A program made the position numbers and the translations under genes. Shown here in pieces: positions 40,346-57,240 of a stretch of DNA of 64,000 nt. The notes beneath the pieces were generated by a model, which saw nothing but the letters and a program-made list of their open reading frames with translations, ran no database searches and was not told the origin of the DNA. The DNA comes from Chitinophagaceae bacterium. GTDB taxonomy: Bacteria; Bacteroidota; Bacteroidia; Chitinophagales; Chitinophagaceae. Location: NCBI GenBank assembly GCA_947476485.1, contig CANJQU010000002.1, positions 2,149-66,148 on the forward strand. Direction: 5' to 3'. Numbering within the stretch: the first letter of the stretch is position 1; each line of letters opens with the position of its first letter.

Positions 40346-40351
40346 AAAGTG

Positions 40352-40529: not shown

Positions 40530-41918
40530 CTAAGCAATAATCCTGTTCAGGAGCAATTGCGGCAAAATACCTATGAGTAAAACCAGGATGCAGGTGATAA
40601 CGAGCATCACTTTGTCGCCCATAGTTACTGGTGAGGTGAACTCGGGCGTGCCTGTTTTAAAATACATGGCAATAATAACGCGGAAGTAGTAATACACACT
40701 AATGGCAGCCATCAGCAAACCAAAGATTACCAGCCACAGTAAATGGCCCTGTTGCACCACAGCAAGCAACACATAGTACTTAGCCATAAACCCACCGGTA
40801 AGAGGAATGCCCGCCAGCGAGAAGAGGAAAATAGACGCGGTAAAAGCAAGTAAGGGCTCCTTCTTAGCCAGGCCATTAAAGCCGTCATAGGTATAATCCT
40901 TCAGCTTTACCAGCACAGAGAATATGCCTATTGTAGCCACGGAATACGCAACTGCATAAATAATAATACCCTGCCAGGCAAACTTGTTAATAGCAAGAAC
41001 TGCAAAAAGCATAAAACCTGCCTGTGCAATGGACGAATAAGCAAGCATGCGCTTTACGCTCTGCTGGAAAACAGCGGTGACATTACCTACCAGCAATGTA
41101 GCGGCTGTGATAATGGCAAGTATTAAAGTCCAATGGTCGCTAAGGCTATTAAAAGACACCTGGAACAAACGGATAAAGGCAAAAAACGCAGATGCCTTAA
41201 CTATTGTGGCCATGTAAGCAGTGAACGGTGTTGGCGCTCCGTCATACACATCCGGTGTCCACATGTGCATAGGCGCTGCAGAAACCTTGAAGCTCATGGC
41301 AATCATAATGAACATGATACCCGCAAGTGCGAGCGGGTTAAGTGCATCGCTATGCAAAACACTAACCATATCCATTATGTTGAATGTACGGGCTGCACCA
41401 TAAAGCAATGCAATGCCCATCAGCAGTATACCGGTAGAGAATGCACCCATCAGGAAGTACTTGAGTGATGCCTCACTACTCTTAAGATTGCGCTTGTCGC
41501 TGCCAGCAAGTATGTATTGAGGTATGGATAGTATCTCGATGCCGATGAACAGCATGAGCAGATTATTGTATGTAGAAAGAATGTAGAGCCCGCAAAGGAT
41601 AAAGAAGATAAGTGCAAAATATTCGGCAACGTGCGAACCCACTTTTTGTATCTCCTTGCCCATCAATAACACATAGAGGACCGAACAACCCGTCATCAGC
41701 GTGTTGAACCAAAGTGAGTAGTGCTCCACACGCAACATATTGCTGAACAGCAATTGCGGTGCATTGGAAGATATAGTTGCAAGGTCCCAGATGTTCACGC
41801 CAAGCAAAGCAATAAAGAGCAGGGTGGCAATTGTAACCACGCTTTTCTTATTGTTCACCATAAGACCGGCAAACATCATGACAATACCAAAAACAGTTGT
41901 AGCAATAATTGCCTTCAT
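40530..41918 (-). CDS. nuoN: NADH-quinone oxidoreductase subunit N
   Basis: Polytopic antiporter-like subunit, last gene of the nuo cluster. ATG at 41918; the track TTG at 41927 reads into the repeat element. Confidence 0.92.
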   Translation of the reverse strand: MKAIIATTVFGIVMMFAGLMVNNKKSVVTIATLLFIALLGVNIWDLATISSNAPQLLFSNMLRVEHYSLWFNTLMTGCSVLYVLLMGKEIQKVGSHVAEYFALIFFILCGLYILSTYNNLLMLFIGIEILSIPQYILAGSDKRNLKSSEASLKYFLMGAFSTGILLMGIALLYGAARTFNIMDMVSVLHSDALNPLALAGIMFIMIAMSFKVSAAPMHMWTPDVYDGAPTPFTAYMATIVKASAFFAFIRLFQVSFNSLSDHWTLILAIITAATLLVGNVTAVFQQSVKRMLAYSSIAQAGFMLFAVLAINKFAWQGIIIYAVAYSVATIGIFSVLVKLKDYTYDGFNGLAKKEPLLAFTASIFLFSLAGIPLTGGFMAKYYVLLAVVQQGHLLWLVIFGLLMAAISVYYYFRVIIAMYFKTGTPEFTSPVTMGDKVMLVITCILVLLIGILPQLLLNRIIA

Positions 41919-41920
41919 AT

Positions 41921-42115
41921 ACCCCAAACCCCTAAAGGGGCTTCCCCATGTTTTTTATTAATAAAAAATAAACCCCAAACCCCTAAAGGGGCTTTCTCTT
42001 ATTTAAATTATTTCTTCACTACATTTCAACTAACCACTTCCCAATTATTAACCAACTGTCCATGACCTTGATCAAAGCACTCCCCTTTCTGTCCCGATGG
42101 CTATCGGGAGGGGGG
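41921..42115 (-). repeat. nuoM-nuoN intercistronic element: a stop-proximal C-rich hairpin plus two copies of the start-proximal arm
   Basis: ACCCCAAACCCCTAAAGGGGCTT at 41921-41948 and 41972-41994. CTCCCGAT..ATCGGGAG hairpin within 42080-42115, directly after the nuoM stop. Confidence 0.8.
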
Positions 42116-43564
42116 TTAATGACCCGGCACGATCATACCCGCAATATTATAGGTCAGATCCAAAAGTGGTTTTGGATATACACCAAGGAATATGATCAGT
42201 ATGATAACGATAGCCAGTCCCACATACTCATTCATACTCAGATCTTTGGCGATCACCATTTTCACAGTTGAGCCATAAGCAGTTTTCTGTATCATGTTCA
42301 GGGTATACACCGCACCAAGGATGATGCCCAGGCCAGCAACAACCATTACTACAATATGGTTTGACTCGGTACCCGAGAACAGCCCATTGAACAACATGAA
42401 CTCACCAACAAAACCATTGGTAAGCGGCAGTGCAACGCTGGCCAGAGAAATGATAACAAATGCAATTGCCATATTAGGTGCAGAAGTTGCCATGCCGCCA
42501 AGCTTTGTCATATCGCGGGTACCCCAGCGATTCTCCACCATGCTTACAATAAGCCACATTCCGGTGATGTTGATGCCGTGGTTGAACATCTGCACCATTA
42601 TACCGTGCATACCGATATTGCTATGAGAGAACGCTACGGCAGCCATCAGTCCCATATGCGCAATAGACGAATAAGCCACAAGTCGCTTCATGTCTGTTTG
42701 CACAATGGCGATGCATGACGCGTAGATGATGCCGATCACAGAAAGCACCACCACAGTATCTGACCAATAAGCTACACCGGCAGGCAATACGGGTAATAAC
42801 CAGCGGAGTACTGCGTAGAGTCCCATCTTCACCATAAGCGCGCTCAGAATAATGGTAACCGGGGTAGGAGACTGCTCGTATGTATCGGGCTGCCACGTAT
42901 GAAATGGAAAGATCGGCATCTTGATAGCGAAGGCTATGAAAATGAGCCAGAAAAGCCATTGCTGTGTAGCAGGAGGCAATGCAGCCCCGGCACGTGTAAT
43001 ATCTGCCCATGAATAACTGCTCAGGCCCTGGGTCTGCATAGACAGGAAAATTAGCCCTGCCAACATCATAAGGCTACCTACAAATGTGTAAATGAAAAAC
43101 TTGAAAGTGACGGCGATGCGCTTTTCGCCACCCCAACGTGAACATAGGAAGTAAACCGGTATGAGCGCAAGTTCCCAGAACACGTAAAAAACCAGGGCAT
43201 CAGAAGCAAGAAAAACACCCATCAGCCCCGCCTGCGAAAGCAAAAGGAAACCATAAAATGCCCCGGGGCTTTCTACTTCTTTATTTACATTGGATATCAT
43301 TACCACCATCACTACGATGCCGGTAAGCAGGCAGAGCATGCTACTCATACCGTCTGCAGCCAGGCTGAATTGGGTGCCAAGTATGGAGATCCAGTCATGG
43401 TTGTAGGTAATAGGCGCAGAATAGTTGGCCCCGCTGATATAAGCTGAAACTCCCAGCGTGAGAATAGAACTTAATAACGCAAGCGCCTTTGCCCCTTCGC
43501 CTTTTACAGCAAAGGACATAATGCCTGTGATCAACGGAATGAGTATAAGAAATAATAAAACCAT
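42116..43564 (-). CDS. nuoM: NADH-quinone oxidoreductase subunit M
   Basis: 482 aa, NuoM/ND4-like (FHTWQPDTYEQSPTPVTIILSALMVKMG). Confidence 0.95.
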   Translation of the reverse strand: MVLLFLILIPLITGIMSFAVKGEGAKALALLSSILTLGVSAYISGANYSAPITYNHDWISILGTQFSLAADGMSSMLCLLTGIVVMVVMISNVNKEVESPGAFYGFLLLSQAGLMGVFLASDALVFYVFWELALIPVYFLCSRWGGEKRIAVTFKFFIYTFVGSLMMLAGLIFLSMQTQGLSSYSWADITRAGAALPPATQQWLFWLIFIAFAIKMPIFPFHTWQPDTYEQSPTPVTIILSALMVKMGLYAVLRWLLPVLPAGVAYWSDTVVVLSVIGIIYASCIAIVQTDMKRLVAYSSIAHMGLMAAVAFSHSNIGMHGIMVQMFNHGINITGMWLIVSMVENRWGTRDMTKLGGMATSAPNMAIAFVIISLASVALPLTNGFVGEFMLFNGLFSGTESNHIVVMVVAGLGIILGAVYTLNMIQKTAYGSTVKMVIAKDLSMNEYVGLAIVIILIIFLGVYPKPLLDLTYNIAGMIVPGH

Positions 43565-43580
43565 GTTCCTAATTTAAAAA

Positions 43581-43683
43581 CCCCAAACCCCTGAAGGGGC
43601 TTCCCCATTTTTATAAATACAATTTCAATTATCAACTAACCGTTCAATTTCCTTGACCCTGCACCCCCTTTAGGGGCAGGGGG
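43581..43683 (-). repeat. nuoL-nuoM intercistronic element (both arms)
   Basis: Start-proximal arm CCCCAAACCCCTGAAGGGGCTTCCCCA at 43581-43607. Stop-proximal arm CCCTGCACCCCCTTTAGGGGCAGGGGG at 43657-43683. Confidence 0.8.
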
Positions 43684-43684
43684 T

Positions 43685-45589
43685 TTATTTTATCCAAAAA
43701 AAGCTTAGTGTAAACAACATCACAATGCCAAGCACCATAATAAAAATGTAAAAACCAACCTGGCCACTCTGCAGCAATCGCAGGCGATCACCACCCCATT
43801 TCACGGTTTTTCCAACGCCGTTAACAATTCCGTCAATACCCTTCTTCTCAGCAAATTTGTCCAGTACATTCGACATTGCTTCCATCGGCCTTACTATAGT
43901 AGCGTCATAGATTTCGTCTACATACCATTTGTTAGCAAGTACCTTCCTAAAGCCAGTGTAGTTGCCATCAAACTGTTTAACAGCGAAGGCTTTGCGGGTA
44001 CCGATAAATATAATGAGCAGTCCAACGACTGTAGCGCCGAAGAGGGTCATCTCCTTCATTGCCGTCGATGCGTCCTCGTGAACAAACGCGGGTATTTTCG
44101 CACCGGCCAAAAATTCATTCAGGAAATCGTGTCCTCCAAACAAATGTGGCAATTGTACAAATCCACCTACCAGCGAGAAAATAGCCAGAACAATAAGCGG
44201 GAACGTAATAGCAGCAGGAGATTCGTGCAAATGATGTTCCTGGTCTTCAGTGCCCCTGAAGCCACCCATAAACACCAACATCAGTAAACGGAACATATAT
44301 ACTGCAGTCAGTATTGCGGCAAAAGCGGCCAGGTAGAAGTAAAGTTTGTTATGCTCATACACCGCCATTAGTATCTCGTCTTTAGATACAAAGCCGGAAG
44401 TGAATGGGAAACCTGAAATTGCCAATACACCGATCAAAAAGGTAAAATAAGTTATTGGAAGTTTTTTCCTCAGACCGCCCATGCGGGTAATATCCTGCTC
44501 ACCACCCATAGCATGTATCACAGAGCCGGCGCCGAGGAATAACAGCGCCTTAAAAAATGCATGGGTCATAACGTGGAAAACGCCGGTGGTATAAGCGCCA
44601 ACGCCCAAAGCCAAAAACATAAAACCAAGCTGGCTTACCGTGGAATATGCAAGTACCTTCTTAATGTCGTTCTGATACAATGCCATTGTTGCTGCAAGTA
44701 ATGCCGTGATCAAACCGACAGTAGCAACGAGGTTAAGCGCCATTGGAGCCAGATCGTATAGTGCATTGCTACGAACGATCATGTAAATGCCAGCAGTAAC
44801 CATGGTTGCTGCATGTATCAGCGCCGATACCGGAGTTGGACCTGCCATCGCATCAGGCAGCCAGGTATACAGCGGCACCTGGGCGCTCTTACCCATAGCG
44901 CCGATAAACAGGCAAATAGCTATCCAGTTATATGTACTGGTTGGCACTACCGACTGGGGGCTATGCAGTTTATCGAAAAATTCGTGATAAGAGAGGGTGT
45001 GGAAATTAAACAGTATTAGCAGCAGACCAACCAGGAAACCGAGGTCACCAATACGGTTCATGATAAATGCCTTCTTGCCTGCATTCGTATAATCCCTGTT
45101 CTTAAACCAGAAACCAATGAGCAGGTATGAGCAAAGACCAACACCTTCCCAACCAATGAACATGATCACATAATTAGCGCCAAGCACCAGCAGTAACATG
45201 AAGAACACGAACAGGTTCAGGTAAGCAAAGTACTTTACCATGCCCTCATCGTGGTGCATATAAGAGGTAGAGTAAACGTGTATCAGGAAACCAATGCCGG
45301 TAATAATGAGCAGGAATAGAGAAGAAAGCGCATCTACCTGGAAAGCAAATGGTATGTAGAAGTCCCCCGACCTGATAAAATCAAACAGAATTTTAGGCTC
45401 ATCATGATATGCCGGGCTTTTTACCTCAAGAAATATTCCTAATGAAATAACAAAGGAAATAAGTATTGCAACGCAGCCAATGATACCACCCAGGTTTTTA
45501 GGCATTCTTTTCCAAAACAAACCGTTGATCAAAAAACCGATCAGCGGAAACAATGGCACTAAGTAGACGAGTTGAGAAAGATTCCCCAT
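43685..45589 (-). CDS. nuoL: NADH-quinone oxidoreductase subunit L
   Basis: 634 aa, NuoL/ND5-like (LYTWLPDAMAGPTPVSALIHAATMVTAG). Confidence 0.95.
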   Translation of the reverse strand: MGNLSQLVYLVPLFPLIGFLINGLFWKRMPKNLGGIIGCVAILISFVISLGIFLEVKSPAYHDEPKILFDFIRSGDFYIPFAFQVDALSSLFLLIITGIGFLIHVYSTSYMHHDEGMVKYFAYLNLFVFFMLLLVLGANYVIMFIGWEGVGLCSYLLIGFWFKNRDYTNAGKKAFIMNRIGDLGFLVGLLLILFNFHTLSYHEFFDKLHSPQSVVPTSTYNWIAICLFIGAMGKSAQVPLYTWLPDAMAGPTPVSALIHAATMVTAGIYMIVRSNALYDLAPMALNLVATVGLITALLAATMALYQNDIKKVLAYSTVSQLGFMFLALGVGAYTTGVFHVMTHAFFKALLFLGAGSVIHAMGGEQDITRMGGLRKKLPITYFTFLIGVLAISGFPFTSGFVSKDEILMAVYEHNKLYFYLAAFAAILTAVYMFRLLMLVFMGGFRGTEDQEHHLHESPAAITFPLIVLAIFSLVGGFVQLPHLFGGHDFLNEFLAGAKIPAFVHEDASTAMKEMTLFGATVVGLLIIFIGTRKAFAVKQFDGNYTGFRKVLANKWYVDEIYDATIVRPMEAMSNVLDKFAEKKGIDGIVNGVGKTVKWGGDRLRLLQSGQVGFYIFIMVLGIVMLFTLSFFWIK

Positions 45590-45607
45590 TTTAAAATTAA
45601 AATTATT

Positions 45608-45913
45608 TTAGTGTTTCAGTCTGTTCAAAATATTAATATCCACTGAATGTACTTTACGATACATCATAACAATGATCGCCAGCCCCACCGCTACTTCAGC
45701 CGCCGCTACTACCATTATAAAAAATACAAACAACTGGGCATCCGCATCGCCATATATTTTTGAAAATGCTACCAATAATAAATTCACGGCATTGAGCATA
45801 AGCTCTATACACATGAAGATAATGATGGCATTACGGCGCATAAGCGCACCCATTATTCCGATGGAAAATAACAGGAGGCTTAAGAACAAATAATGTGTTG
45901 AATTTACCGGCAT
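45608..45913 (-). CDS. nuoK: NADH-quinone oxidoreductase subunit K
   Basis: 101 aa with 3 TM segments and the conserved Glu in [11 protein letters not shown]. Confidence 0.93.
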
Positions 45914-45939
45914 CTGATCAGTTATAGTAGTGATTAGTA

Positions 45940-46485
45940 TTATAAAAATTGTTTCATTTCCGATTCGTCTTCTTTAGAGACGGATTTCGTCTCTTCTTTC
46001 TTACCTATCACTACCGCACCGATCATTGCACTAAGAAAGAGAACACTGCTAATTTCAAAAGGCAGCACATACCTTGTAAACAATACCTTACCGAGATCGG
46101 CTATCAGGCCAATATCTGTAGAGGTCTTATCTATCGATTCTGTCTTCGCAGTTTTTATGGAAGCAAGTATCACAAGGAACAAAACACCACCCGAGATCAC
46201 GCCGGCCAGCTGCACCAACTGTCCTTTTTGCGGTTCCACATCTGCGTTCAGGTTCATTAACATGATAACGAAGAGAAACAATACCATTATTGCACCTGCG
46301 TATACGATAATATTCACAATAGCCAGGAACTGTGCATTCATTAATATATAATGACCCGATATTGCGAAAAAAGTGCCGATCAGGAACATCACACTGTTCA
46401 CCGGGTTACGGCTGAGGATAACCCCAAGCGCACAACCAACAGCGAACGCAGACAAAATCCAAAATAATATATCGTAGATGTCCAT
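45940..46485 (-). CDS. nuoJ: NADH-quinone oxidoreductase subunit J
   Basis: 181 aa, NuoJ-like ([10 protein letters not shown]...[17 protein letters not shown]). Confidence 0.92.
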
Positions 46486-46487
46486 AC

Positions 46488-46997
46488 TTATTTGCTATCC
46501 TGTTTTTTAGGGTTAGGAATGAGCAGGTCTTCTTTTTTATAAATGAAACTTGCGCGCGTATAATTTGCAGGCATTATCGTCTCAGTAAGGTAAATAGCGT
46601 CTTTAGGGCAGGCTTCCTCGCAGTAACCGCAGAATATGCAACGAAGCATATTTATCTCGTATTTAGCTGCGTACTTCTCTTCACGGTAAAGCATCTCTTC
46701 GCCGGCTTTACGCTCGGCGGCCTCCATAGTGATGGCCTCTGCGGGACAAGCGAGTGCACAAAGGCCACAGGCCGTGCAACGCTCAGCGCCATTCTCATCA
46801 CGGTTCAATATGTGCAGGCCACGAAATACCGGGCTGAACGGACGTTTCTCTTCCGGATAGCTGGTAGTAGCTTTCTTTTTAAATATATGCCCCAGCGTAA
46901 TGCCCAGGCCCTTTGCCAGTGAGGGCAGGTAAACACGCTCCCCGAAGGTCATCGGGCTACGGTCTATCTGTACTGCTCTGTTAGTTAGTTTTTGCAT
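46488..46997 (-). CDS. nuoI: NADH-quinone oxidoreductase subunit I
   Basis: Two 4Fe-4S motifs (CTACGLCALACP, CIFCGYCEEACP). Its start overlaps the end of the upstream HEPN gene by 17 nt. Confidence 0.93.
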   Translation of the reverse strand: MQKLTNRAVQIDRSPMTFGERVYLPSLAKGLGITLGHIFKKKATTSYPEEKRPFSPVFRGLHILNRDENGAERCTACGLCALACPAEAITMEAAERKAGEEMLYREEKYAAKYEINMLRCIFCGYCEEACPKDAIYLTETIMPANYTRASFIYKKEDLLIPNPKKQDSK

Positions 46998-47644: not shown

Positions 47645-47649
47645 TACTC

Positions 47650-48729
47650 CTACTTTTTAAATACCCACAATATCAGCACCCCGGTTATCAACATATTTAC
47701 CAAAGCCAAAGGTATCAGTGAGCGCCATCCCAGTTTCATTAGCTGATCATAGCGGAAGCGAGGAAGCGTCCACCTGACAAACATGAAAAACAGGATCATA
47801 CATACCACCTTGGTCAAAAGAACCATGACACAAATAAGAACAAACAAAATAGGGTACGCTGCGGTTGCTTGCTGCACACTGTCCATGAACGGGAAGTTAT
47901 AACCGCCAAAGAACAGGGTGACAATGATAGCGGAGCTGACAAACATGTTGATGTACTCTGCAAACAGGTAGAAACCTAGCTTCATAGAAGAATACTCCTG
48001 GTGATAACCCATGTTCAACTCACTCTCGCACTCCGGAAGATCGAAAGGTGCACGGTTAAGCTCTGCGAAAGCGCAGGTAAGGAAAATAACAAACCCAACA
48101 GGCTGCTTAAAAAAGTTCCATGAAAAATAACCATCGTTCCAGAAACCATGCTGCTGTGCAACGATCTCCCTAAGGCTAAGGGTACCGGTAAGCATTAAAA
48201 GTGCGATAAGGCTAATACCCATTGCCAGTTCATAAGAGATCGCTTGCGATGCCGCTCGAATACTACTTAGTAACGAGAATTTATTGTTTGACGCCCAGCC
48301 GCCCAGCATTACTCCGTACACACCAAGGCTCACAACGCCAAAAACAAATAAGATACCAATGCTAATATCAGCTACCTGGAAAGATATGACACGGCCACTA
48401 TCGGTAACGAGGTCAGGTCCCCAGGGTACAATGGCACTGGTCATCAACGCGGTGAGCATTGCGAGGCAAGGACCGAGAATGAAAATAAACCTTGTGGAAC
48501 GGTCTGGAATGATCTCCTCTTTGAAAAACAGTTTCAAACCGTCAGCAAGGGGTTGTAACAAACCAAACGGACCGGCACGGTTCGGACCGATACGGTCCTG
48601 CATTACCGCAGCTACCTTACGCTCACCCCAGGTGGCATACATAGCTATGCCTAACGACCCCATCAGTATTACCGAAATGAGGATGACTTTTTCTATAATA
48701 AGCGCTGTATCAATTTGAAGTAACAGCAT
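47650..48729 (-). CDS. nuoH: NADH-quinone oxidoreductase subunit H
   Basis: 359 aa, NuoH/ND1-like (GERKVAAVMQDRIGPNRAGPFGLLQPLADG). Confidence 0.95.
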   Translation of the reverse strand: MLLLQIDTALIIEKVILISVILMGSLGIAMYATWGERKVAAVMQDRIGPNRAGPFGLLQPLADGLKLFFKEEIIPDRSTRFIFILGPCLAMLTALMTSAIVPWGPDLVTDSGRVISFQVADISIGILFVFGVVSLGVYGVMLGGWASNNKFSLLSSIRAASQAISYELAMGISLIALLMLTGTLSLREIVAQQHGFWNDGYFSWNFFKQPVGFVIFLTCAFAELNRAPFDLPECESELNMGYHQEYSSMKLGFYLFAEYINMFVSSAIIVTLFFGGYNFPFMDSVQQATAAYPILFVLICVMVLLTKVVCMILFFMFVRWTLPRFRYDQLMKLGWRSLIPLALVNMLITGVLILWVFKK

Positions 48730-48747
48730 AGTGGCGCAAAAGTAGTT

Positions 48748-49113
48748 TTAGTTAGTTAAAAATTTATCGTCTGAATCAAGTTTTATTGTGCTTATCTCTT
48801 TTTTCAATTGTGACAGAAAGATCGTCGCAGCGTCCCAAATTATACCGAAGTCGATCCGGAAATATTCGTGTACCACAATGTTCCTCAAACCTATTATTTT
48901 ATGCCATTCTACGCCCGGATAGTTATTCCTCGTCTCATTTGTAATATTATTCGCCGCCTCTCCAATAATCTCTAACCATTTTACAACCGCGATCCGAAGG
49001 ACATGATTATCACAAAATGCCTCGTAATTGACCCCCATAATCGCCGTTTCAATTTCATTTATGTATTCAATAACATGGGCAATTCGTGCATCATCGCCGA
49101 TCTTATCTCTCAT
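48748..49113 (-). CDS. HEPN/DUF86 family protein (HepT-like toxin), copy 2
   Basis: GLRNIVVHEY is the RNx3H HEPN motif. The start at 49113 overlaps the NTase stop by 11 nt. Confidence 0.8.
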   Translation of the reverse strand: MRDKIGDDARIAHVIEYINEIETAIMGVNYEAFCDNHVLRIAVVKWLEIIGEAANNITNETRNNYPGVEWHKIIGLRNIVVHEYFRIDFGIIWDAATIFLSQLKKEISTIKLDSDDKFLTN

Positions 49114-49399: not shown

Positions 49400-49409
49400 T
49401 TTTTTTCAA

Positions 49410-50507
49410 TCAGACTCCTTTACTACCAGAAGTCTTAAAATCATCTGAATGTGCGGGCCCCTCTATCTCTGATAAATGAACCTCGGGTCTGTTCACATCA
49501 CTTACATCATGAATGTCTAATAAGAATTTAGGCTGCTTGCCAATCACCTTATCTATCAACACCGGTGGTTTCATTGTCCCAACATAATGGCCTTGCGCGA
49601 TAACACTGCTGCGCTCGATCGCGGATGGGCCTTCTATTACCCAGTCTTTTGTTTCCTTTTTATGGAAGCGGCATTCGTTGCAGATAAATTCTTCCACTTC
49701 CCCCCACTTGTCCTTGCGGGCTGTAACTCGGAATACCTCTTCGCCACGCATCCACAGACGAACCTTACCCGTACAGGTTGGGCAGTCGCGATGTGCGTCC
49801 ACAGGCTTCGTAAACCATACGCGGTTCTTAAATCGGAATGTTTTATCGGTAAGCGCACCGACAGGGCATACATCTATCACATTGCCAATAAAGTCATGAT
49901 CCAGCGACTTGTTCAGCATGGTGCTGATCTGCGCATGGTCACCTCTCTCCAGTATGCCATGCTCACGCTTGTCTGTAAGCTGGTCGGCAGTATACACGCA
50001 ACGGAAACACATGATGCAACGCGTCATGTGCAGGGATATGTATGGACCTATATCTTCTTTCTCAAAAGTGCGACGCTTGAATTCGTAGCGTGTAGCCTCA
50101 TTACCATGCTCGTAACTCAGGTTCTGAAGATCACACTCACCTGCCTGGTCACAAACCGGGCAGTCCAGCGGATGATTGAGCAATAAGAATTCAACAACAC
50201 CTTTGCGCGCATCCAGTACTTTAGGTGAGGTGATATTTTTCACTTCCATGCCGTCCATTACCGTAGTACGGCAACTGGCCACCAGCTTGGGCATAGGGCG
50301 CGGGTCTTTCTCTGACCCTTTGCTTACCTCTACCAGGCAGGTGCGGCATTTGCCACCGCTGTCCTTCAGTTTGCTGTAGTAGCACATGGCCGGCGGTGTA
50401 ACCTCTCCACCTATCATACGCGCGGCATTCAAAATAGTAGTACCGGCTGGTACTTCTATAGTGATGTTATCAATGGTTACTTTAAATTTTGGTGTTTGGT
50501 CACTCAT
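49410..50507 (-). CDS. nuoG: NADH-quinone oxidoreductase subunit G (short Fe-S form)
   Basis: The N-terminal 2Fe-2S and 4Fe-4S cysteine clusters are present (CYYSKL..CRTCLVEV, HPLDCPVCDQAGEC, CIMCFRC). ATG at 50507 is preferred over the overlapping longer ORF. Confidence 0.9.
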   Translation of the reverse strand: MSDQTPKFKVTIDNITIEVPAGTTILNAARMIGGEVTPPAMCYYSKLKDSGGKCRTCLVEVSKGSEKDPRPMPKLVASCRTTVMDGMEVKNITSPKVLDARKGVVEFLLLNHPLDCPVCDQAGECDLQNLSYEHGNEATRYEFKRRTFEKEDIGPYISLHMTRCIMCFRCVYTADQLTDKREHGILERGDHAQISTMLNKSLDHDFIGNVIDVCPVGALTDKTFRFKNRVWFTKPVDAHRDCPTCTGKVRLWMRGEEVFRVTARKDKWGEVEEFICNECRFHKKETKDWVIEGPSAIERSSVIAQGHYVGTMKPPVLIDKVIGKQPKFLLDIHDVSDVNRPEVHLSEIEGPAHSDDFKTSGSKGV

Positions 50508-50520
50508 TGTTCTTTCTCTT

Positions 50521-50901
50521 TTATTTAACCTTACCCCTTGCAATATTCGGAGATTCAGGGTTTACGCTCAATTTGAAAAGCCGTGGAATAACTACCAAAT
50601 CCATATCTTCCATTGGTATCGCTCCTAACAGACATTCATCTCCTAAAACCATTGCACCAACAAAACATACCCGGTTTTCAAACTCTACCTTTATCGGTCC
50701 CACGTAAGGCATTAGCTTTGATGTGCCGTCAGCCAGCAGGGCTTCTTTCTGATACAATTCATTTACACCTAACTGATTGGCAACATGTTGAGTAATGCAT
50801 AAGAATGTAGACCCACTATCAACCAAACTTTTTACCTCAACAGGTGATTGTTCGGATTTTACCGGGTTCGATAATCTAATATTTGCGTAGACCAGTCCCA
50901 T
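50521..50901 (-). CDS. Retropepsin-like (clan AA) aspartic protease
   Basis: 126 aa. VDSGST is the active-site-type motif and GAIPMEDMDLVV the C-terminal motif, as in small bacterial and archaeal clan AA proteases. Confidence 0.75.
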   Translation of the reverse strand: MGLVYANIRLSNPVKSEQSPVEVKSLVDSGSTFLCITQHVANQLGVNELYQKEALLADGTSKLMPYVGPIKVEFENRVCFVGAMVLGDECLLGAIPMEDMDLVVIPRLFKLSVNPESPNIARGKVK

Positions 50902-50911
50902 ATATTTATTT

Positions 50912-52267
50912 TTACGCTGTTGTAGCTACGTGAATAGGATCGGCATAGTGTGCCAGTCCATAATTACGGCGCTGCGATTCATCGGGGTTCAAAACATGCC
51001 ACTCAAATTCATCACGGAAATGACGGATGGCAGCAGCTATAGGCCATGCAGCGGCATCGCCAAGTGGGCATATCGTATTGCCCTCTATCTTGCGCTGAAT
51101 ATCCCAAAGCAGATCTATATCGCTCATCTTACCTTTTCCGTATTCAATATTCTTCAGTATCTTATACATCCAGCCAGTGCCTTCGCGGCATGGGCTGCAC
51201 TGTCCGCAACTTTCATGATTGTAGAACCGGGCAAGTGTCATGGTATGGCGTACAACACACTGGTCTTCGTCCAACACGATAAAACCACCCGAGCCCATCA
51301 TACTGCCAGATACAAATCCGCCGTCAGAAAGGCTTTCGTAGTTCATGTAACGGGTTTCGCCTTTTGCCGTTTTAAGCAGCAGGTTAGCCGGTATTATTGG
51401 AACAGATGATCCTCCCGGAATACAAGCCTTCAGTTTCTTACCGTTTGGTATTCCACCGCAATACTCGTCACTGTAGATGAACTCTTCTACAGAAATGGTC
51501 ATGTCTATTTCGTAAACACCTTGATTCTTTACATTGCCACACACAGAGAGCAGCTTGGTACCGGTAGATTTACCCACACCGATCTTTGCATACTCATCAC
51601 CACCCATGTTTATGATCGGCACTACAGCCGCTATTGTCTCCACATTGTTCACCACAGTCGGGCGCATCCATACACCCTGTATCGCAGGGAATGGCGGCTT
51701 CATGCGGGGGTTACCACGCTTGCCTTCCAGTGATTCTATAAGCGCAGTCTCCTCACCACATATATAAGCGCCCGCACCGCGGTGCACATAAATCTCGCAA
51801 TCAAATCCTGAACCAAGTATATTCTTCCCGAGCCAGCCATTGTTTTTTGCCTCAACTATTGCCTGCTCCAGTATTTCCGGTATCCAGGCGTACTCGCCAC
51901 GTATATAAACATATGTTGCATTGCTGCCAAGCGCAAAACTGCTTATCAGTAATCCTTCTATAAACAGATGCGGATGAAACTCCATCAGGTAGCGGTCCTT
52001 GAACGTACCCGGCTCCGATTCGTCGGCATTACATACCAGGTGACGTGGCACACCTTCCGGCTTAGCCAGGAAGCTCCACTTCATACCTGTAGGAAAGCCC
52101 GCTCCACCACGGCCACGCAGGCCGCTTTTCTTCACCTCTTCCACTATATCAGCCGGAGACATCTTAAATGCCTTCTCAGCCGCACGGTAGCCACCATGCT
52201 TGCGGTAGGCATCGTAATAACGAATGCCTTCTACCTTATCGTGTTCTAATAATAGTTTTACGCCCAT
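50912..52267 (-). CDS. nuoF: NADH-quinone oxidoreductase subunit F
   Basis: 451 aa with the FMN/NADH site GRGGAGFPTG and the 4Fe-4S motif ESCGQCSPCREG. Confidence 0.96.
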   Translation of the reverse strand: MGVKLLLEHDKVEGIRYYDAYRKHGGYRAAEKAFKMSPADIVEEVKKSGLRGRGGAGFPTGMKWSFLAKPEGVPRHLVCNADESEPGTFKDRYLMEFHPHLFIEGLLISSFALGSNATYVYIRGEYAWIPEILEQAIVEAKNNGWLGKNILGSGFDCEIYVHRGAGAYICGEETALIESLEGKRGNPRMKPPFPAIQGVWMRPTVVNNVETIAAVVPIINMGGDEYAKIGVGKSTGTKLLSVCGNVKNQGVYEIDMTISVEEFIYSDEYCGGIPNGKKLKACIPGGSSVPIIPANLLLKTAKGETRYMNYESLSDGGFVSGSMMGSGGFIVLDEDQCVVRHTMTLARFYNHESCGQCSPCREGTGWMYKILKNIEYGKGKMSDIDLLWDIQRKIEGNTICPLGDAAAWPIAAAIRHFRDEFEWHVLNPDESQRRNYGLAHYADPIHVATTA

Positions 52268-52290
52268 ACCCCAAACCCCTAAAGGGGCTT
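52268..52290 (-). repeat. Solo start-proximal arm of the nuo intercistronic element, abutting the nuoF ATG
   Basis: ACCCCAAACCCCTAAAGGGGCTT begins at the base next to the nuoF start codon. Confidence 0.8.
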
Positions 52291-52310
52291 TAATGTTTCT
52301 TATTAAGTTT

Positions 52311-52732
52311 TTAGATCTTCACACTCTGTCTCGCAAATAATTCCCAATGTTTGTTCTTCCACTGCCATACTTCCAATACTTTCAGTTTCAATTCCAGTGG
52401 CTTGCCCTCCATCAGTATTTTCACTTGCATTTCGGTTCTCACAATTCCTGTTTCACCATTAACCTGCAACATATCTGCACCGGTATTGATCTCCTGGTAA
52501 GTAAACTTCCCATTATACAGATCACCGATCACTTCTTTTTCGACTGTATCCACCCGTTCGAATGACCGTAAGTCAGCTCATCCAGAAGTAAATTTCTCAA
52601 TTTCACAGAGTCTTTATCAACCAGCGCTTTGTGAAATATTACTGCCGTTTCGCCCAGGTTCTTTTGTCCGGGTTTTTGTGCAAATACACCAACACTTACA
52701 AAGAGCAACAATATCGTTAATAAATATCTCAT
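52311..52732 (-). pseudogene. Frameshifted NTF2-like (SnoaL/DUF4440-type) secreted protein gene
   Basis: ORF 52529-52732 (signal peptide ...LTYGHSNGW) and ORF 52311-52553 (VDTVEKEVIGDLYNGKF...) read as one protein after a 1-nt shift near 52540-52553. Confidence 0.6.
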
Positions 52733-52750
52733 TTTGTTCCTATTCCTATT

Positions 52751-53220: not shown

Positions 53221-53258
53221 TTCTCTTTTACTTTCAAATAGTCACCTTTTAGACGATC

Positions 53259-53663
53259 CTAGCTTTTATCAATGATCAAAATATAATCTTCCATCGGGTC
53301 GAAAAAGAAATCTGTCCAGCCTGCTTTGTGGCTTTTCATTTCATCTTCGTTCGGGAAACCTGTATGGTGAAGTATCACCTTCGTACCTGCTTCATCTTCT
53401 TTCAATAAATAATGAACTTCAGTTGGTTTTGTCTCTTCCGGCCAATCACTCGTTTTCCACGTGTATGCCAATTCATTTTTACCTGTCTTCAGCACTGTTC
53501 CCGTCACCCACCCATCAAACATCTCAAATCTGCCGCCCTCTTTATTTTCCAGCACTGCTTCTCCGCCACTCCACTTCCTTATCAGTACCGGGTCTGTGAG
53601 CAGTTGCATCACCCTTGCAGGCTTCCCGGATAATATAAATTCAAGCGCGAGGTCGTAAGCCAT
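53259..53663 (-). CDS. SRPBCC superfamily protein (AHSA1/START-like)
   Basis: 134 aa. LTDPVLIRKWSGGEAV...GGRFEMFDGWVTG...GTKVILHHTGFP is present. It starts 4 nt after the nuoE stop. Confidence 0.8.
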   Translation of the reverse strand: MAYDLALEFILSGKPARVMQLLTDPVLIRKWSGGEAVLENKEGGRFEMFDGWVTGTVLKTGKNELAYTWKTSDWPEETKPTEVHYLLKEDEAGTKVILHHTGFPNEDEMKSHKAGWTDFFFDPMEDYILIIDKS

Positions 53664-53667
53664 AACT

Positions 53668-54162
53668 TTAGTTTTTGGCTTGCCCCCTCAATTCTTCTAT
53701 TAATTTATCTACTTTTTCTTCTGTCAGATGTTCGCGATATGTTTTGCCAAGCTGCATCATCGGTGCGTATCCGCATGCGCCCAGACACTCCGCAGGCTTC
53801 AAAGTAAATAAGCCATCAGTGGTAGTTTCCCCTTCACTGATGCCCAGCTTTTCTTTTATATAGTCTATTATCTGATCACTTCCATTGAGCATACATGGAC
53901 CGGTGCGGCATACCTCAAGCAGATATTTACCAACCGGCTTTGTATTGAACATACTGTAGAAAGTAGCCACTTCATACACTTCAATAGGTAGTATGTTCAG
54001 TATCCCTGCCACATAATCCATCGCAGGCGCATCCAGCCATCCGCCATTTTCATCCTGCGCCATATGCAGCAACGGTATCAAAGCACTCTTCTCTTTCCCT
54101 TCCGGGTAGTGGGAGATCAGCTCTTTTACCTCTTTCAATTTTTCCTCTGAAAATTTTATCAT
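53668..54162 (-). CDS. nuoE: NADH-quinone oxidoreductase subunit E
   Basis: 164 aa with 2Fe-2S ligands (VCRTGPC ... CLGACGYAPMM). Confidence 0.94.
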   Translation of the reverse strand: MIKFSEEKLKEVKELISHYPEGKEKSALIPLLHMAQDENGGWLDAPAMDYVAGILNILPIEVYEVATFYSMFNTKPVGKYLLEVCRTGPCMLNGSDQIIDYIKEKLGISEGETTTDGLFTLKPAECLGACGYAPMMQLGKTYREHLTEEKVDKLIEELRGQAKN

Positions 54163-54181
54163 TTAAATCCGCTGATTAATA

Positions 54182-55432
54182 TTAAGCATCCAGTTCTCCT
54201 GCTATTACATTCAAACTACTGAGTGTTATGATCGCATCACTAAGCAGACCGCCTTCCACCATTTCAGGATATGCCTGGTAATAGATGAAGCATGGTCTGC
54301 GGAAATGCAGGCGATAAGGAGAACGTCCACCATCACTTATCAAATAGTATCCTACTTCACCATTACCACCTTCTACCGAGTGGTAAACCTCACCTGCCGG
54401 TGCGTCTATCTCTCCCATTATTATCTTAAAATGCCAGATGAGCGCTTCCATTTTTGTATACACATCTTCCTTTGCAGGGATGTGAAAATGGTCAGCTTCC
54501 TTTGCATAAAATATTTCTTTCTGCTCCGGGAACTCCCTCTCTATTTTGTCTATCTTTTCCAGCGCCTGGTGTATGATGCTAACGCTCTCCCATATCTCAC
54601 CATTACGCACCATGAAACGGTCATACACATCACCCACCGTACCTATCGGAATTTTAAAATCAAAGTCTTCGTAAGAAGAATACGGCATTGCCACCCGAAC
54701 ATCATAATCCACACCTGCGGCACGAAGATTAGGTCCGGTAAAGCCATAGTTCAACGCACGCTCCGCACTGATAGGACCAGCGCCAATGCAACGATCCATG
54801 AATACACGGTTACGATTAAGCAGCGATTCGAACTCCTTCATCACCTTCGGGAAGGTCTTCAAAAAGTCATTCAGCTTGCTGAAAGATGCGGGTGTAAAAT
54901 TGCGCTCGAACCCACCTACACGGCCAATATTAGTTGTCAACCTCGAGCCACATATCTCTTCAAATATTTCGTAGATCTTTTCGCGATACTGGAATACATA
55001 GGTAAAAGGCGTAAGGGCACCGGTATCTACTGCGATAACCGAATTACAAACCAGGTGATCTGCAATTCTCGCCAGCTCCATTATTATAACGCGCAGGTAT
55101 TCTACACGTTTAGGCAACTTAAGGCCCAACAGCTTTTCGATGGTCATATGCCATCCCATATTGTTGATGGGCGATGAGCAATAGTTTAGCCTGTCGGTAA
55201 GCGGTGTTATCTGGTAGTAAGGCCGGCGCTCTGCGATCTTCTCAAAAGCACGGTGTATATAACCAATGGTAGGCACGGTTTCCAGCACGCGCTCACCATC
55301 TATTTCCATTATATTCTGGAACACACCATGCGTTGCCGGGTGCGTTGGACCGAGGTTGAGCGTAGTGGTCTGCTTCTGAAGCGACTCTTCAGAAAGCTTT
55401 ATATGATGTTGTTGTTGTGGTTGTATTTCCAT
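54182..55432 (-). CDS. nuoD: NADH-quinone oxidoreductase subunit D
   Basis: 416 aa. LNLGPTHPATHGV and the C-terminal ...VIAGELDA are present. Confidence 0.96.
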   Translation of the reverse strand: MEIQPQQQHHIKLSEESLQKQTTTLNLGPTHPATHGVFQNIMEIDGERVLETVPTIGYIHRAFEKIAERRPYYQITPLTDRLNYCSSPINNMGWHMTIEKLLGLKLPKRVEYLRVIIMELARIADHLVCNSVIAVDTGALTPFTYVFQYREKIYEIFEEICGSRLTTNIGRVGGFERNFTPASFSKLNDFLKTFPKVMKEFESLLNRNRVFMDRCIGAGPISAERALNYGFTGPNLRAAGVDYDVRVAMPYSSYEDFDFKIPIGTVGDVYDRFMVRNGEIWESVSIIHQALEKIDKIEREFPEQKEIFYAKEADHFHIPAKEDVYTKMEALIWHFKIIMGEIDAPAGEVYHSVEGGNGEVGYYLISDGGRSPYRLHFRRPCFIYYQAYPEMVEGGLLSDAIITLSSLNVIAGELDA

Positions 55433-55553
55433 ACCCCAAACCCCTGAAGGGGCTTCCCCCTGTTTTTTAAAATTTGTTTAAAATGCACATCGCTCAATTA
55501 CTTTACTATAGCCCCATGGCCTCTACCATGTACCCCTTTAGGGGCCGGGGGTA
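55433..55553 (-). repeat. nuoC-nuoD intercistronic element (both arms)
   Basis: ACCCCAAACCCCTGAAGGGGCTTCCCCC at 55433-55460 abuts the nuoD ATG. GTACCCCTTTAGGGGCCGGGGGTA at 55530-55553 abuts the nuoC stop. Confidence 0.8.
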
Positions 55554-55554
55554 T

Positions 55555-56052
55555 TTACCTTCCGAACATTTCATCGTCCTTATCTCTTCTTGTCGGATCT
55601 TCCATTTCATATTCTTTGCGCATGGGGAAGTAGTCCATTTCGTCTACATTCAATATCCGTATCAGGTTTGGATGACCGATAAAGTTGACGCCGAAGAAAT
55701 CATAGGTCTCGCGCTCCATCCAGTTTGCAGCAGAAAATAGCTGCGATGCCGTATATACATCTGGCTTCTCAACGGGTACATACACCTTCAAACGAAGACG
55801 AACATTGTTCGTGAGGCTATGCAGGTGATAAACCACACACAATTCCTCTCCTTTCCTGTTGGGATAATGAACTGCGGTAAGGTCTGTCATAAACCGAAAC
55901 TGCAATGCGTCATCATCAAACAGGAACTGCATCACTTTCAGGTTCATATCAGCAGCAGCCCTGAATGTGAGCAGGCCATATTGCTCTTCCCACTCGGTAA
56001 GCGATTCGCCAAACTTCGCAGTAAGACTCTGTTTTATTATTTCGTTTGTCAT
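55555..56052 (-). CDS. nuoC: NADH-quinone oxidoreductase subunit C
   Basis: NuoC signature ANWMERETYDFFG. ATG at 56052 is preferred because the first 11 codons of the track ORF translate the repeat element. Confidence 0.92.
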   Translation of the reverse strand: MTNEIIKQSLTAKFGESLTEWEEQYGLLTFRAAADMNLKVMQFLFDDDALQFRFMTDLTAVHYPNRKGEELCVVYHLHSLTNNVRLRLKVYVPVEKPDVYTASQLFSAANWMERETYDFFGVNFIGHPNLIRILNVDEMDYFPMRKEYEMEDPTRRDKDDEMFGR

Positions 56053-56056
56053 AGAC

Positions 56057-56198
56057 ACCCCAAACCCCGAAAGGGGCTTCTCCATGTTATTTTTTATGTT
56101 GTTCTATAAACACTCTCAATTCTCTGTTTTCAGCTCAATTTAATAACCACAGCTCAATGCACTTGAACCGGCACTCCCCCTTCAGGGGGCCGGGGGGG
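56057..56198 (-). repeat. nuoB-nuoC intercistronic element (both arms)
   Basis: ACCCCAAACCCCGAAAGGGGCTTCTCCA at 56057-56084. CCGGCACTCCCCCTTCAGGGGGCCGGGGGGG at 56168-56198 abuts the nuoB stop. Confidence 0.8.
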
Positions 56199-56762
56199 TT
56201 ACTGTATCGCGTAACTCTCCATCAGTGCTTTATACTGATCGCTGCCACGCCTGCGCAAACTCTCATTATGCACGAGGTCCTGCAATTTCAGGATCCCGTC
56301 CAGTATTCCTTCGGGCCGCGGCGGGCAACCCGGCACATAAACGTCCACGGGTATTACCTGGTCAATTCCCTGCAGCACAGGATAAGAGTCGAAAATACCA
56401 CCGGTACAGGCACAAGCACCTATGGCCACAACCCAGCGGGGTTCTGCCATCTGCAAATATACCTGCCGAAGTATCGGACCCATTTTTTTAGCAATTGTTC
56501 CTGCCACTAACAACATGTCGCACTGACGAGGTGTAAAGCCCATTCGCTCTGCACCGAAACGGCCAAGATCGTAGTTGGAACCCATCGTGGCCATGAATTC
56601 AATACCGCAGCATGAAGTTGCAAAAGGCAACGGCCACAGAGAATTAGCGCGGGCAAGTCCCACTACTTTATCAAACGATGTAGCATGAAAACCAGGACCG
56701 GAGTACCCATCTGGTATCTCCACCATCTTTATCTTCGTATTATACTGAACCGGACGAGGCAT
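56199..56762 (-). CDS. nuoB: NADH-quinone oxidoreductase subunit B
   Basis: 187 aa with N2 cluster ligands (SCCGIE ... GACACTGG ... GCPP). AAGGAGGG lies 8 nt upstream of the ATG. Confidence 0.95.
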   Translation of the reverse strand: MPRPVQYNTKIKMVEIPDGYSGPGFHATSFDKVVGLARANSLWPLPFATSCCGIEFMATMGSNYDLGRFGAERMGFTPRQCDMLLVAGTIAKKMGPILRQVYLQMAEPRWVVAIGACACTGGIFDSYPVLQGIDQVIPVDVYVPGCPPRPEGILDGILKLQDLVHNESLRRRGSDQYKALMESYAIQ

Positions 56763-56847
56763 AATGTAACCCTCCTTCTCCCTACAGGGAGTAATTTTTT
56801 GAAATTAAAACAATGAACATCACATCCGTGGCCGATCAGGCCAAGGC

Positions 56848-57240
56848 TTAATCTTCCCAATCTAACGCACCTTTCTTTACTATGTAAATAAACCCACACA
56901 AAAAGAATGCAACAAACAACACTACTTCCAGGAAGCCATCTTTACCCAAATACCGGAAATTTACTGCATATGGATAAAAGAAGATCACCTCCACATCAAA
57001 CAGCACAAAAAGGATGGCAACAAGGAAATATTTTATACCCATCGGCTGACGGGCATTACCCACCGATGGTATACCGCTCTCGAAATTAATAAGCTTGTCC
57101 TGTGTCTTTCTTTTAGGACCAAGCAGGTGTGTTACACCCATCATCACAACAATAAATCCAATTGCTATAACCAGTTGAAGGGCTATCGGGAAATAATTAA
57201 ATGGCGTGTTGTGTTCCACTGCCAGCAATAAAAGATTCAT
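56848..57240 (-). CDS. nuoA: NADH-quinone oxidoreductase subunit A
   Basis: 130 aa with 3 TM segments and FLVAILFVLFDVEVIFFYP. It is the first gene of the cluster. Confidence 0.93.
   Translation of the reverse strand: MNLLLLAVEHNTPFNYFPIALQLVIAIGFIVVMMGVTHLLGPKRKTQDKLINFESGIPSVGNARQPMGIKYFLVAILFVLFDVEVIFFYPYAVNFRYLGKDGFLEVVLFVAFFLCGFIYIVKKGALDWED

Follow-up and report, generated by a model that had tools for sequence, protein, structure and literature searches.

Why would the genes of a core respiratory enzyme be interleaved with toxin–antitoxin (TA) modules, and how long have they been so? The question is raised by a 64,000-nt stretch of DNA (hereafter, the window) from a Chitinophagaceae bacterium (GenBank assembly GCA_947476485.1, contig CANJQU010000002.1, positions 2,149 to 66,148), which holds the 14-gene complex I (NDH-1) operon of a freshwater, uncultured, Flavipsychrobacter-like member of the family. 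NCBIfam matched all 14 subunits, nuoA to nuoN, in the canonical order on the minus strand from 57240 to 40530, and the nuoE/nuoF, nuoF/nuoG, nuoG/nuoH and nuoH/nuoI junctions (E/F, F/G, G/H and H/I; other junctions are named likewise) are filled by ten additional open reading frames (ORFs), every one of them on the nuo strand. An original prediction, made from the sequence, had described this gene order and the extra same-strand genes at these four junctions, and both descriptions are borne out by the family matches and the ORF list. Pfam and NCBIfam searches likewise agree with its family calls (an SRPBCC protein, a frameshifted NTF2-like gene, a protease and three TA pairs), and its gap counts equal the values that we recomputed, namely 4 nt for nuoE/SRPBCC, 43 nt for NTF2/nuoF, 10 nt for nuoF/protease, 13 nt for protease/nuoG (with the nuoG ATG at 50507), 10 nt for nuoG/mntA, 18 nt for hepT/nuoH and 5 nt for nuoH/mntA, with a 17-nt overlap of hepT and nuoI. 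The locus is matched by the metagenome scaffold_2472 of ENA ERZ28612979 (85.8 kb) and is present in other assemblies too; we rejected an assembly artefact, as identical proteins in the same layout were found in several independent assemblies (ENA, Logan and NCBI).

The reading that we favor, with a probability of about 0.6, is that the inserts are long-term residents of the operon: accessory and TA cassettes, probably without promoters of their own, that are co-transcribed with nuo and are kept both because selection acts on their TA or defence function and because deletion at this location is difficult. Each MntA/HepT pair would have entered one junction long ago and then been passed on, chiefly by vertical descent, together with the nuo genes on either side, while at E/F the SRPBCC and NTF2-like genes would have come first, with hicBA nested between them later. 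Transcription from a promoter upstream of nuoA would place the cassettes on the polycistronic nuo mRNA, because the spacers leave no room for terminators, domains for DNA binding or autoregulation are missing from the antitoxins, and the nuoI start lies within one hepT. The cassettes would persist by working as normal TA, stress or defence modules for which the operon serves as an expression platform, and only deletions with both ends inside spacers of a few nucleotides would remove them without harming complex I. Many relatives do without the cassettes, some after losing them, and we therefore regard these as accessory genes and not as components of complex I.

The G/H and H/I pairs each consist of a nucleotidyltransferase, MntA (the putative antitoxin), and a HEPN protein, HepT (the putative RNase toxin). 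Class I HepT/MntA modules are defined by a PF01909 gene upstream of a PF01934 gene, with GSX10DXD in MntA and RX4HXY in HepT (PMC7641770). Both window pairs show all of these features: they score above the Pfam gathering thresholds, the PF01909 gene lies upstream with its ORF overlapping that of the PF01934 partner, and the motifs read GSYARGDANEDSDVD and GSYARGEADESSDVD in MntA and RNYYAHVY and RNIVVHEY in HepT. Judged by domains and motifs, they are divergent members of the class I HepT/MntA (type VII) TA systems. In a PADLOC search, MntA matched the candidate family PDC-S09 only, and HepT, HicA, HicB, the protease and SRPBCC gave no match.

Are these pairs newcomers or old inhabitants of the operon? 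More than 280 homologues were returned for each MntA, and we inspected the genomic contexts of nine of them, with identities from 100% down to 52%. All nine were at the matching junction with a HepT partner, down to 52–53% identity: the four G/H contexts (P0037, P0046, P0059 and P0120; 53–72% identity) lay between nuoG and nuoH, and the five H/I contexts (P0121, P0170, P0180, P0185 and P0219; 52–100% identity) between nuoH and nuoI. Furthermore, MntA and HepT cluster by junction and not by genome, MntA identity being 64–90% among G/H copies and 44–62% among H/I copies but 37–50% between the two groups, even within one genome. Orthologous cassettes share their junction in genomes whose Nuo proteins are only 65–80% identical, and MntA identity follows that of the flanking Nuo proteins with Spearman coefficients of 0.65 (G/H) and 0.51 (H/I), the pairs being non-independent and the p-values indicative only. 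These results point to two separate lineages that were probably acquired independently, both in the distant past, and have since descended mainly vertically. We also considered a duplication within the operon, which is unsupported: the window's two copies are 38% (MntA) and 23% (HepT) identical to each other, no higher than the identity of MntA to its closest plasmid homologues, from archaea and cyanobacteria (36–41%).

Orthologous MntA/HepT genes differ at a proportion of 0.11–0.39 of nonsynonymous sites (pN) against a saturated 0.62–0.90 of synonymous sites (pS), and GSX10DXD and RX4HXY are invariant in nine of nine aligned pairs; toxin and antitoxin alike are thus under strong purifying selection. 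No phage match was found for MntA/HepT, the 47 kb around the operon contain no paralogues of them, and neither the window ORFs nor a repeat search revealed a transposase, integrase, direct repeats or target-site duplications flanking the cassettes. The description of the inserts as foreign-looking genes recently parked in the operon therefore does not hold for MntA/HepT, which are old junction-bound lineages, nor for SRPBCC and NTF2, which are ancestral at E/F (see below).

The 3' ends of the two hepT genes are closely fitted to the nuo genes that follow. The last four codons and the stop of the G/H hepT lie within a conserved leader before nuoH. In most H/I contexts (L089, L090, L093/L094 and L099), hepT and the start of nuoI share 17–20 nt, while in L091 the two genes abut without overlap; L002 and L011 have the same C-terminal hepT residues, ...KTN, that span the nuoI start in the window.

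Losses in relatives tell the other half of this history. In the closest relative, L001, whose Nuo proteins are 96% identical to those of the window, the G/H and H/I sites appear "empty". At G/H, 637 nt of the window are replaced by 34 nt; the deletion took away the final 22 nt of nuoG, the whole of mntA and hepT up to its final 47 nt, which remain. At H/I, 15 nt stand in place of 640 nt; one endpoint lies 4 nt ahead of the nuoH stop and the other 16 nt upstream of the nuoI ATG, so that 16 nt of hepT before this ATG and the 17 nt shared with nuoI are retained. Elsewhere, a truncated mntA 5' end remains at H/I in L007, and HepT is truncated in L011 (the H/I copy) and in L093/L094. L011 is the cultured Flavipsychrobacter stenotrophus (NZ_PPSL01000003.1) and holds cassettes at G/H as well as H/I. 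The empty sites of sister genomes are, as such remnants show, near-precise deletions. These deletion remnants and HepT truncations indicate that the cassettes can be lost, and the claim that they sit in an operon that cannot be silenced, with its implication of locked-in cassettes, needs revising, as relatives have deleted them cleanly. On the other hand, the resolved losses end within a few nucleotides of nuo genes, which favors the view that the site as such makes deletion slow.

At E/F, the SRPBCC gene has orthologues at the same junction in seven relatives, and the ratio of its nonsynonymous to synonymous substitution rates (dN/dS) against L001 is 0.03. Intact NTF2-like homologues of ~146 aa are found at E/F in 18 relatives, and by this distribution SRPBCC and NTF2 appear to be the ancestral E/F content of the Flavipsychrobacter clade. 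The window's own NTF2-like gene is in two pieces owing to a 1-nt loss in the A-run at 52536–52540; one added A restores ...GWIQSKKEVIGDLYNGK..., and the frame then aligns end to end with the intact signal-peptide homologues. Its C-terminal piece scores 22.5 bits with PF14534, against a gathering cut-off of 25.2, whereas an intact orthologue scores 49 bits. A sequencing error is an unlikely cause of the frameshift, and we take it to be a real mutation, because the exact truncated product (67 aa) recurs on eight independently assembled contigs.

Between these two genes lies a HicAB pair. HicB is of the short UPF0150 type, having the N-terminal neutralizing domain alone and not the C-terminal DNA-binding domain of canonical long HicB, and the exact protein was found on 13 contigs. 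The hicA gene overlaps the hicB stop by 4 nt, and the HicA domain adjoins the HicB domain, as a HicAB type II TA system requires. A near replica of the window's arrangement was returned for P0258, a 76%-identical protease homologue: its places (L095 and a sibling place without DNA) read SRPBCC/AHSA1-HicB-HicA-DUF4440-protease-nuoF-protease-nuoG-MntA-HepT-nuoH, although in L095 itself HicB is truncated and hicA is not called. Across relatives, the E/F junction is enlarged in 38 of 74 loci and carries almost exclusively accessory genes (46 ORFs versus two of TA type), from families that include secreted NTF2/DUF4440 proteins, SRPBCC/AHSA1, VOC/YjdN-like proteins, NlpE-N lipoproteins, DNA-alkylation repair proteins and aspartic proteases. 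SRPBCC proteins can bind quinones, Coq10 being an example, and by analogy it is conceivable that the E/F accessory genes are linked to respiration or quinone handling.

The aspartic protease at F/G contains the catalytic motif D28-S29-G30 (D-[ST]-G) in its translation. Its homologues at 76% and 69% identity are also found between nuoF and nuoG, and one at 68% is a stand-alone gene elsewhere, from which the protease appears to belong to a larger family whose members are less strictly tied to one position. The same junction carries, in at least six genomes (L001 at 8399–10002, L002, L013, L048, L077 and L091), a ~355-aa AAA_15/AAA_21 ATPase that is accompanied by a conserved ~178-aa partner without any family match. 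The ATPase matches PADLOC PDC-M38A, AbiLi, GajA and AriA with E-values of 1e-15 to 1e-17, and the two genes are, by these similarities, a candidate two-gene defence system inside the complex I operon.

How unusual is such an operon? A NuoG scan of species-representative genomes gave 80 loci from Flavipsychrobacter, Taibaiella and other Chitinophagaceae/Chitinophagales; in each, all nuo genes were mapped, and the ORFs in enlarged junctions (≥250 nt) were clustered and classified. A few loci had strongly negative L/M and M/N "gaps"; these were tblastn cross-hits of the paralogous nuoL, nuoM and nuoN at contig ends and were ignored. The results show that E/F is enlarged in 51% of the loci, F/G in 32%, H/I in 15%, C/D in 11%, D/E in 10%, K/L in 9% and G/H in 8%, and B/C, I/J and M/N in none. 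Recognizable inserts are present in 49 of the 80 loci and TA- or defence-type genes in 35, and 160 of 188 junction ORFs (all loci, the window included) are co-oriented with nuo. Consequently, the premise that nuo operons are normally compact fails in the Chitinophagaceae, though compact ones do occur in a Sediminibacterium-like clade; the comparison of nuo loci that the original prediction had called for shows that inserts are common in the family and variable in their presence. The window is the only one of 71 loci in which all four central junctions are occupied. MntA/HepT accounts for four of the six enlarged G/H junctions and for three of the 11 enlarged H/I junctions.

The TA and defence cargo of these junctions is broad: F/G, G/H, H/I, D/E, K/L and A/B carry MntA/HepT, HicAB, RelE, PIN, DUF4160/DUF2442, HEPN, Uma2 and DUF559 genes, as well as a DUF6036 nucleotidyltransferase pair, four-helix-bundle proteins, GxxExxY PD-(D/E)XK proteins, and AbiL/Gabija/AriA-like ATPases with their partner. 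Genomes that hold H/I MntA/HepT also hold, between nuoG and nuoH, a HicA (86 aa)–HicB (69 aa, UPF0150) pair in the gene order opposite to that of the window's E/F hicB-hicA (L089, L090, L093, L094, L099, L100 and L020); this pair may be a third TA lineage bound to one junction. Proteins named for the 23S rRNA intervening sequence (IVS; four-helix bundle, TIGR02436/PF05635) account for 16 ORFs, and GxxExxY PD-(D/E)XK proteins (TIGR04256/PF13366) for nine ORFs, in the F/G, K/L, A/B and D/E junctions of relatives (examples of the two groups are L030 6734–7114, L056 4183–4572 and L084 1539–1889). Both may be small genes specialized in colonizing highly expressed core transcription units. Several metagenome-assembled relatives have fragmented nuoD, nuoF, nuoH, nuoL or nuoM ORFs that mimic inserts in an automated gap scan (L020 and L027 in the L/M region, L027 at D/E and H/I, and L047 at E/F) and may reflect frameshifts or assembly errors.

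Do the cassettes have promoters of their own? The full Bacteroidetes-type consensus TTTG-N19-TAnnTTTG occurs six times in the 64 kb (1.57 expected), and the site upstream of nuoA (TTTG-N19-TAACTTTG), the candidate main promoter, is the only one in or near the operon; a sigma-70-type scan, which looks for a promoter type that is wrong for Bacteroidota, was uninformative, with 38 matches against 41.9 expected. A terminator scan found no convincing intrinsic terminators in the junctions or cassettes, only weak hairpins, the strong hairpins being spacer repeats. The cassette borders are tight in divergent genomes, with 0–25 nt upstream and 0–41 nt or an overlap downstream. MntA is an enzyme without a DNA-binding domain and HicB lacks one too, so that the three antitoxins have no obvious means of regulating a promoter of their own, which fits cassettes that lack such promoters. 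The most economical reading of these sequence features would be co-transcription with nuo and translational coupling at hepT/nuoI.

The rival to this part of the proposal is that the nuo cluster consists of several transcription units, with cassette promoters in the 3' ends of upstream nuo genes and internal restarts of nuo, which would make toxin expression independent of complex I expression. A TAnnTTTG (−7-like) box, TACTTTTG, stands 8 nt before the nuoH ATG, within a leader (AACTAAnnTACTTTTGCGCC, 48730–48760) that is conserved in the Flavipsychrobacter clade (L001–L015), cassette-less genomes included; this leader could be an internal promoter that yields a nearly leaderless nuoH mRNA, or a translation-initiation element. 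Lone TAnnTTTG boxes are also found at 47707–47714, 63 nt upstream of the H/I mntA, and within mntA/hepT, and the confinement of inserts to a few junctions (E/F, F/G, H/I and G/H), and never B/C, I/J or M/N, is what sub-operon boundaries predict. However, the lone boxes are not enriched on the operon strand (its 17 kb hold eight, and the mean of the window is 0.35 per kb per strand) and none of them has a −33 TTTG partner there, no convincing terminators separate the units, the narrow gaps (0–25 nt) and overlaps at both cassette ends recur in divergent genomes, and hepT shares sequence with nuoI. We consider separate transcription units improbable. The contention that there is essentially no room for promoters or terminators is accordingly right about the tight packing and the terminators but too strict about promoters, which may sit inside upstream coding sequence, as the box before nuoH illustrates.

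Could the modules instead have been domesticated to regulate respiration? AMPylation of HepT by MntA requires ATP, and a fall in energy charge or an imbalance of nuo expression could therefore leave new HepT unmodified and lead to RNase-mediated growth arrest or to processing of the nuo mRNA. Such coupling would account for the conservation of junction-bound toxin and antitoxin to 52–53% identity with intact motifs under purifying selection, for the tight coupling or overlap of hepT with nuoI, and for the lack of nearby paralogues, and neutralization is ATP-dependent in the model system (PMC7641770). It is at odds with the patchy distribution (G/H MntA/HepT in four and H/I in three of 80 species), with the clean deletion of both pairs in a 96%-identical relative, with the truncated toxins of several lineages and with the many unrelated TA and defence families at the same junctions, which look more like a permissive site than a specific partnership. 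We judge this coupling unlikely. A little less likely still is its specific form, in which the G/H and H/I MntA/HepT (and the recurring G/H HicAB) would be an energy-state checkpoint translated from the nuo mRNA. If true, the checkpoint would adjust or cut the complex I transcript, or stop growth upon respiration failure, and these would be the first TA modules functionally integrated into a core bioenergetic operon. Finally, mobile TA cassettes could have landed only recently in an operon that cannot be silenced. In favor of this, GC and GC at third codon positions (GC3) are lower in MntA, HepT and the protease than in their neighbors, TA families are typically mobile, and junction content differs even between 96%-identical relatives. 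Nevertheless, the shared junctions at 65–80% Nuo identity, the saturated synonymous sites, the deletion remnants that explain the differences between close relatives, and the lack of transposases, integrases, flanking direct repeats and close plasmid or phage homologues leave this explanation with very little probability. For MntA/HepT, SRPBCC and NTF2 it is largely refuted; hicBA or the protease alone could remain as recent arrivals.

Several observations weigh against long-term residence on the nuo transcript. Junction fidelity rests on a sample of nine database contexts. The pairs miss the NCBIfam equivalog cut-off of 60 bits (MntA, NF047752, 55.5 and 47.7 bits; HepT, NF047751, 18.9 and 34.6 bits), which is why we call them divergent. 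Cassette divergence follows flank divergence only loosely: some pairs with >90% flank identity have MntA proteins only 53–62% identical. Recombination may therefore have replaced alleles now and then, a form of horizontal spread through the conserved flanks. The GC3 of MntA/HepT (0.29–0.41) is unexpected in very old residents unless selected; that of nuo and other long ORFs is ~0.50, of the protease 0.35 and of the E/F genes 0.43–0.48. With long residence otherwise supported, we do not read the low GC3 as evidence that the genes came in lately; selection for low translation is one possible cause, and allelic exchange from time to time is another. The boxes before nuoH and the H/I mntA also count here, as promoters could lie inside the upstream coding sequences.

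The spacers of the operon carry a further feature. The hairpin motif GCCCCTTYAGGGGTTTGGGGT has six matches (0 expected), all within the operon on its strand and none in the other 47 kb, each 0–60 nt upstream of the start of nuoC, nuoD, nuoF, nuoM or nuoN. Inverted partner copies, ACCCCCnGCCCCTAAAGGGG, lie past the nuoB, nuoC and nuoL stops, and the B/C, C/D and L/M spacers (~113–122 nt) look like miniature inverted-repeat transposable element (MITE)- or repetitive extragenic palindrome (REP)-like elements, the predicted pairing of their ends closing the whole spacer (RNA fold z-scores of −1.4 to −2.6). The M/N spacer (188 nt) contains two GCCCCTTYAGGGGTTTGGGGT copies. The motif is absent from 78 of the 80 relatives, and Rfam at its gathering threshold gave no matches in the whole window, so that the repeats belong to no known RNA family; they may stabilize or process mRNA between cistrons. 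Past the nuoN stop, the spacer at 40346–40529 holds two tandem 81-nt units with about four palindromic hairpins, TTAATTAGGGCA-N6-TGCCCTAATTAA, their sole occurrence in the window, and is a candidate operon terminator or another repeat family.

Coordinates are collected in the table below. The longest ORFs of nuoC, nuoG and nuoN extend into the upstream spacer or repeat (56053–56085, 50508–50543 and 41919–41927), which affects the measurement of junction gaps, and the true starts are likely downstream: 56052 for nuoC, 50507 for nuoG and 41918 for nuoN, as well as 49113 and 47358 for the G/H and H/I hepT. The nuoG start was placed there because homologue alignments favor the downstream ATG, and the nuoC and nuoN starts because of the position of the hairpin repeat relative to the in-frame ATGs.

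Table. Genes and sequence elements of the complex I operon in the window.
Feature	Position	Strand	Match or remark
Candidate main promoter, Bacteroidetes type	57281-57311	-	41 nt upstream of nuoA ATG
nuoA	56848-57240	-	NCBIfam
nuoB	56199-56762	-	NCBIfam
nuoC	55555-56052	-	NCBIfam; longest ORF reaches 56085
nuoD	54182-55432	-	NCBIfam
nuoE	53668-54162	-	NCBIfam
SRPBCC/AHSA1-family gene, 134 aa	53259-53663	-	PF08327, 67.9 bits (gathering score 22.1)
hicB-like, putative antitoxin, 75 aa	52993-53220	-	PF15919, 43.7 bits, model positions 1-45 of 123
hicA, putative toxin, 80-81 aa	52751-52996	-	PF07927, 76.6 bits
NTF2-like (DUF4440) gene, two pieces, signal peptide	52311-52732	-	PF14534, C-terminal piece
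nuoF	50912-52267	-	TIGR01959, 576 bits
Clan AA (retropepsin-like) aspartic protease, 126 aa	50521-50901	-	TIGR03698, 65.5 bits (cut-off 57.35)
nuoG, short Bacteroidota type	49410-50507	-	NCBIfam; longest ORF reaches 50543
mntA, G/H lineage, nucleotidyltransferase, 98 aa	49103-49399	-	PF01909, 49.2 bits; GSX10DXD
hepT, G/H lineage, HEPN, 121 aa	48748-49113	-	PF01934, 81.6 bits; RX4HXY
TACTTTTG box (−7-like), possible internal promoter	48737-48744	-	8 nt upstream of nuoH ATG
nuoH	47650-48729	-	NCBIfam
mntA, H/I lineage, 97 aa	47351-47644	-	PF01909, 60.1 bits; GSX10DXD
hepT, H/I lineage, 125 aa	46981-47358	-	PF01934, 62.5 bits; RX4HXY
nuoI	46488-46997	-	NCBIfam
nuoJ	45940-46485	-	NCBIfam
nuoK	45608-45913	-	NCBIfam
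nuoL	43685-45589	-	NCBIfam
nuoM	42116-43564	-	NCBIfam
nuoN	40530-41918	-	NCBIfam
Hairpin motif GCCCCTTYAGGGGTTTGGGGT, six copies	41921-41941, 41972-41992, 43580-43600, 52268-52288, 55433-55453, 56057-56077	-	motif search
Inverted partner copies ACCCCCnGCCCCTAAAGGGG	~43665-43684, ~55533-55552, ~56177-56196		past nuoL, nuoC and nuoB stops

Is any of this already known? In the open-access literature, we found no description of TA modules inside a nuo operon or of TA lineages tied to one junction, in line with the earlier statement that no described example was known. In E. coli, the relA-mazEF arrangement places a TA module downstream of a housekeeping gene with which it is co-transcribed, at the end of the unit and with its own autoregulated promoter. 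The window resembles it in having TA modules in what would be the transcription unit of a core physiological gene but differs in that the modules are internal, flanked on both sides by subunit genes of one enzyme, and have antitoxins without DNA-binding domains. Hotspots of defence and TA genes flanked by core genes are familiar from bacterial pangenomes, and here too variable cargo of this kind (HEPN/MNT, HicAB, RelE, PIN and the AbiL/Gabija-like ATPase pair) sits between conserved genes; unlike those hotspots, the site lies inside one operon, the cargo is co-oriented without its own regulatory space, and single lineages persist for long. The 23S rRNA IVS protein families offer a likeness as small HEPN-clan or PD-(D/E)XK genes inside a highly expressed indispensable unit; they occur in relatives' nuo junctions, neither of them in the window, and their rRNA link rests on family names.

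The nqo cluster of Paracoccus denitrificans holds six unidentified reading frames (URFs). In Rhodobacter capsulatus, the nuo cluster carries urf7, which is similar to SAM methyltransferases and has a proposed role in complex I assembly (PMC9036352); co-oriented non-nuo ORFs are thus interspersed in a 14-gene complex I operon there as well, and passenger genes in nuo operons are not new because such URFs are known. The passengers of the window differ in being TA modules, a protease, SRPBCC and NTF2, in Bacteroidota, with a history of gain, loss and decay. Class I HepT/MntA itself is represented by SO_3166/SO_3165 of Shewanella oneidensis (PMC7641770), with which the window pairs share the PF01909 gene upstream of and overlapping the PF01934 gene, the intact motifs and a size of 97–125 aa. 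Relative to that system, the putative TA pairs of the window sit between essential-type respiratory genes without their own intergenic space; they are junction-bound lineages that would be inherited with the operon and fall below the equivalog cut-offs. The component families are therefore ordinary, and it is the architecture and its evolutionary stability that are new.

Chromosomal TA modules are usually viewed as highly mobile, poorly conserved in position and unclear in function. Here, two type VII pairs are kept at the same two complex I junctions across deep Chitinophagaceae divergence, apparently without promoters or terminators of their own. Particular nuo junctions are hotspots for TA, defence and small selfish genes, which is relevant to genome annotation and to the reading of operons. 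As cultured relatives are available, the locus offers a natural system in which to ask whether TA modules persist merely because their location is hard to delete, whether a strongly expressed essential operon is exploited as a platform, or whether growth arrest or defence is coupled to the expression of respiratory genes.

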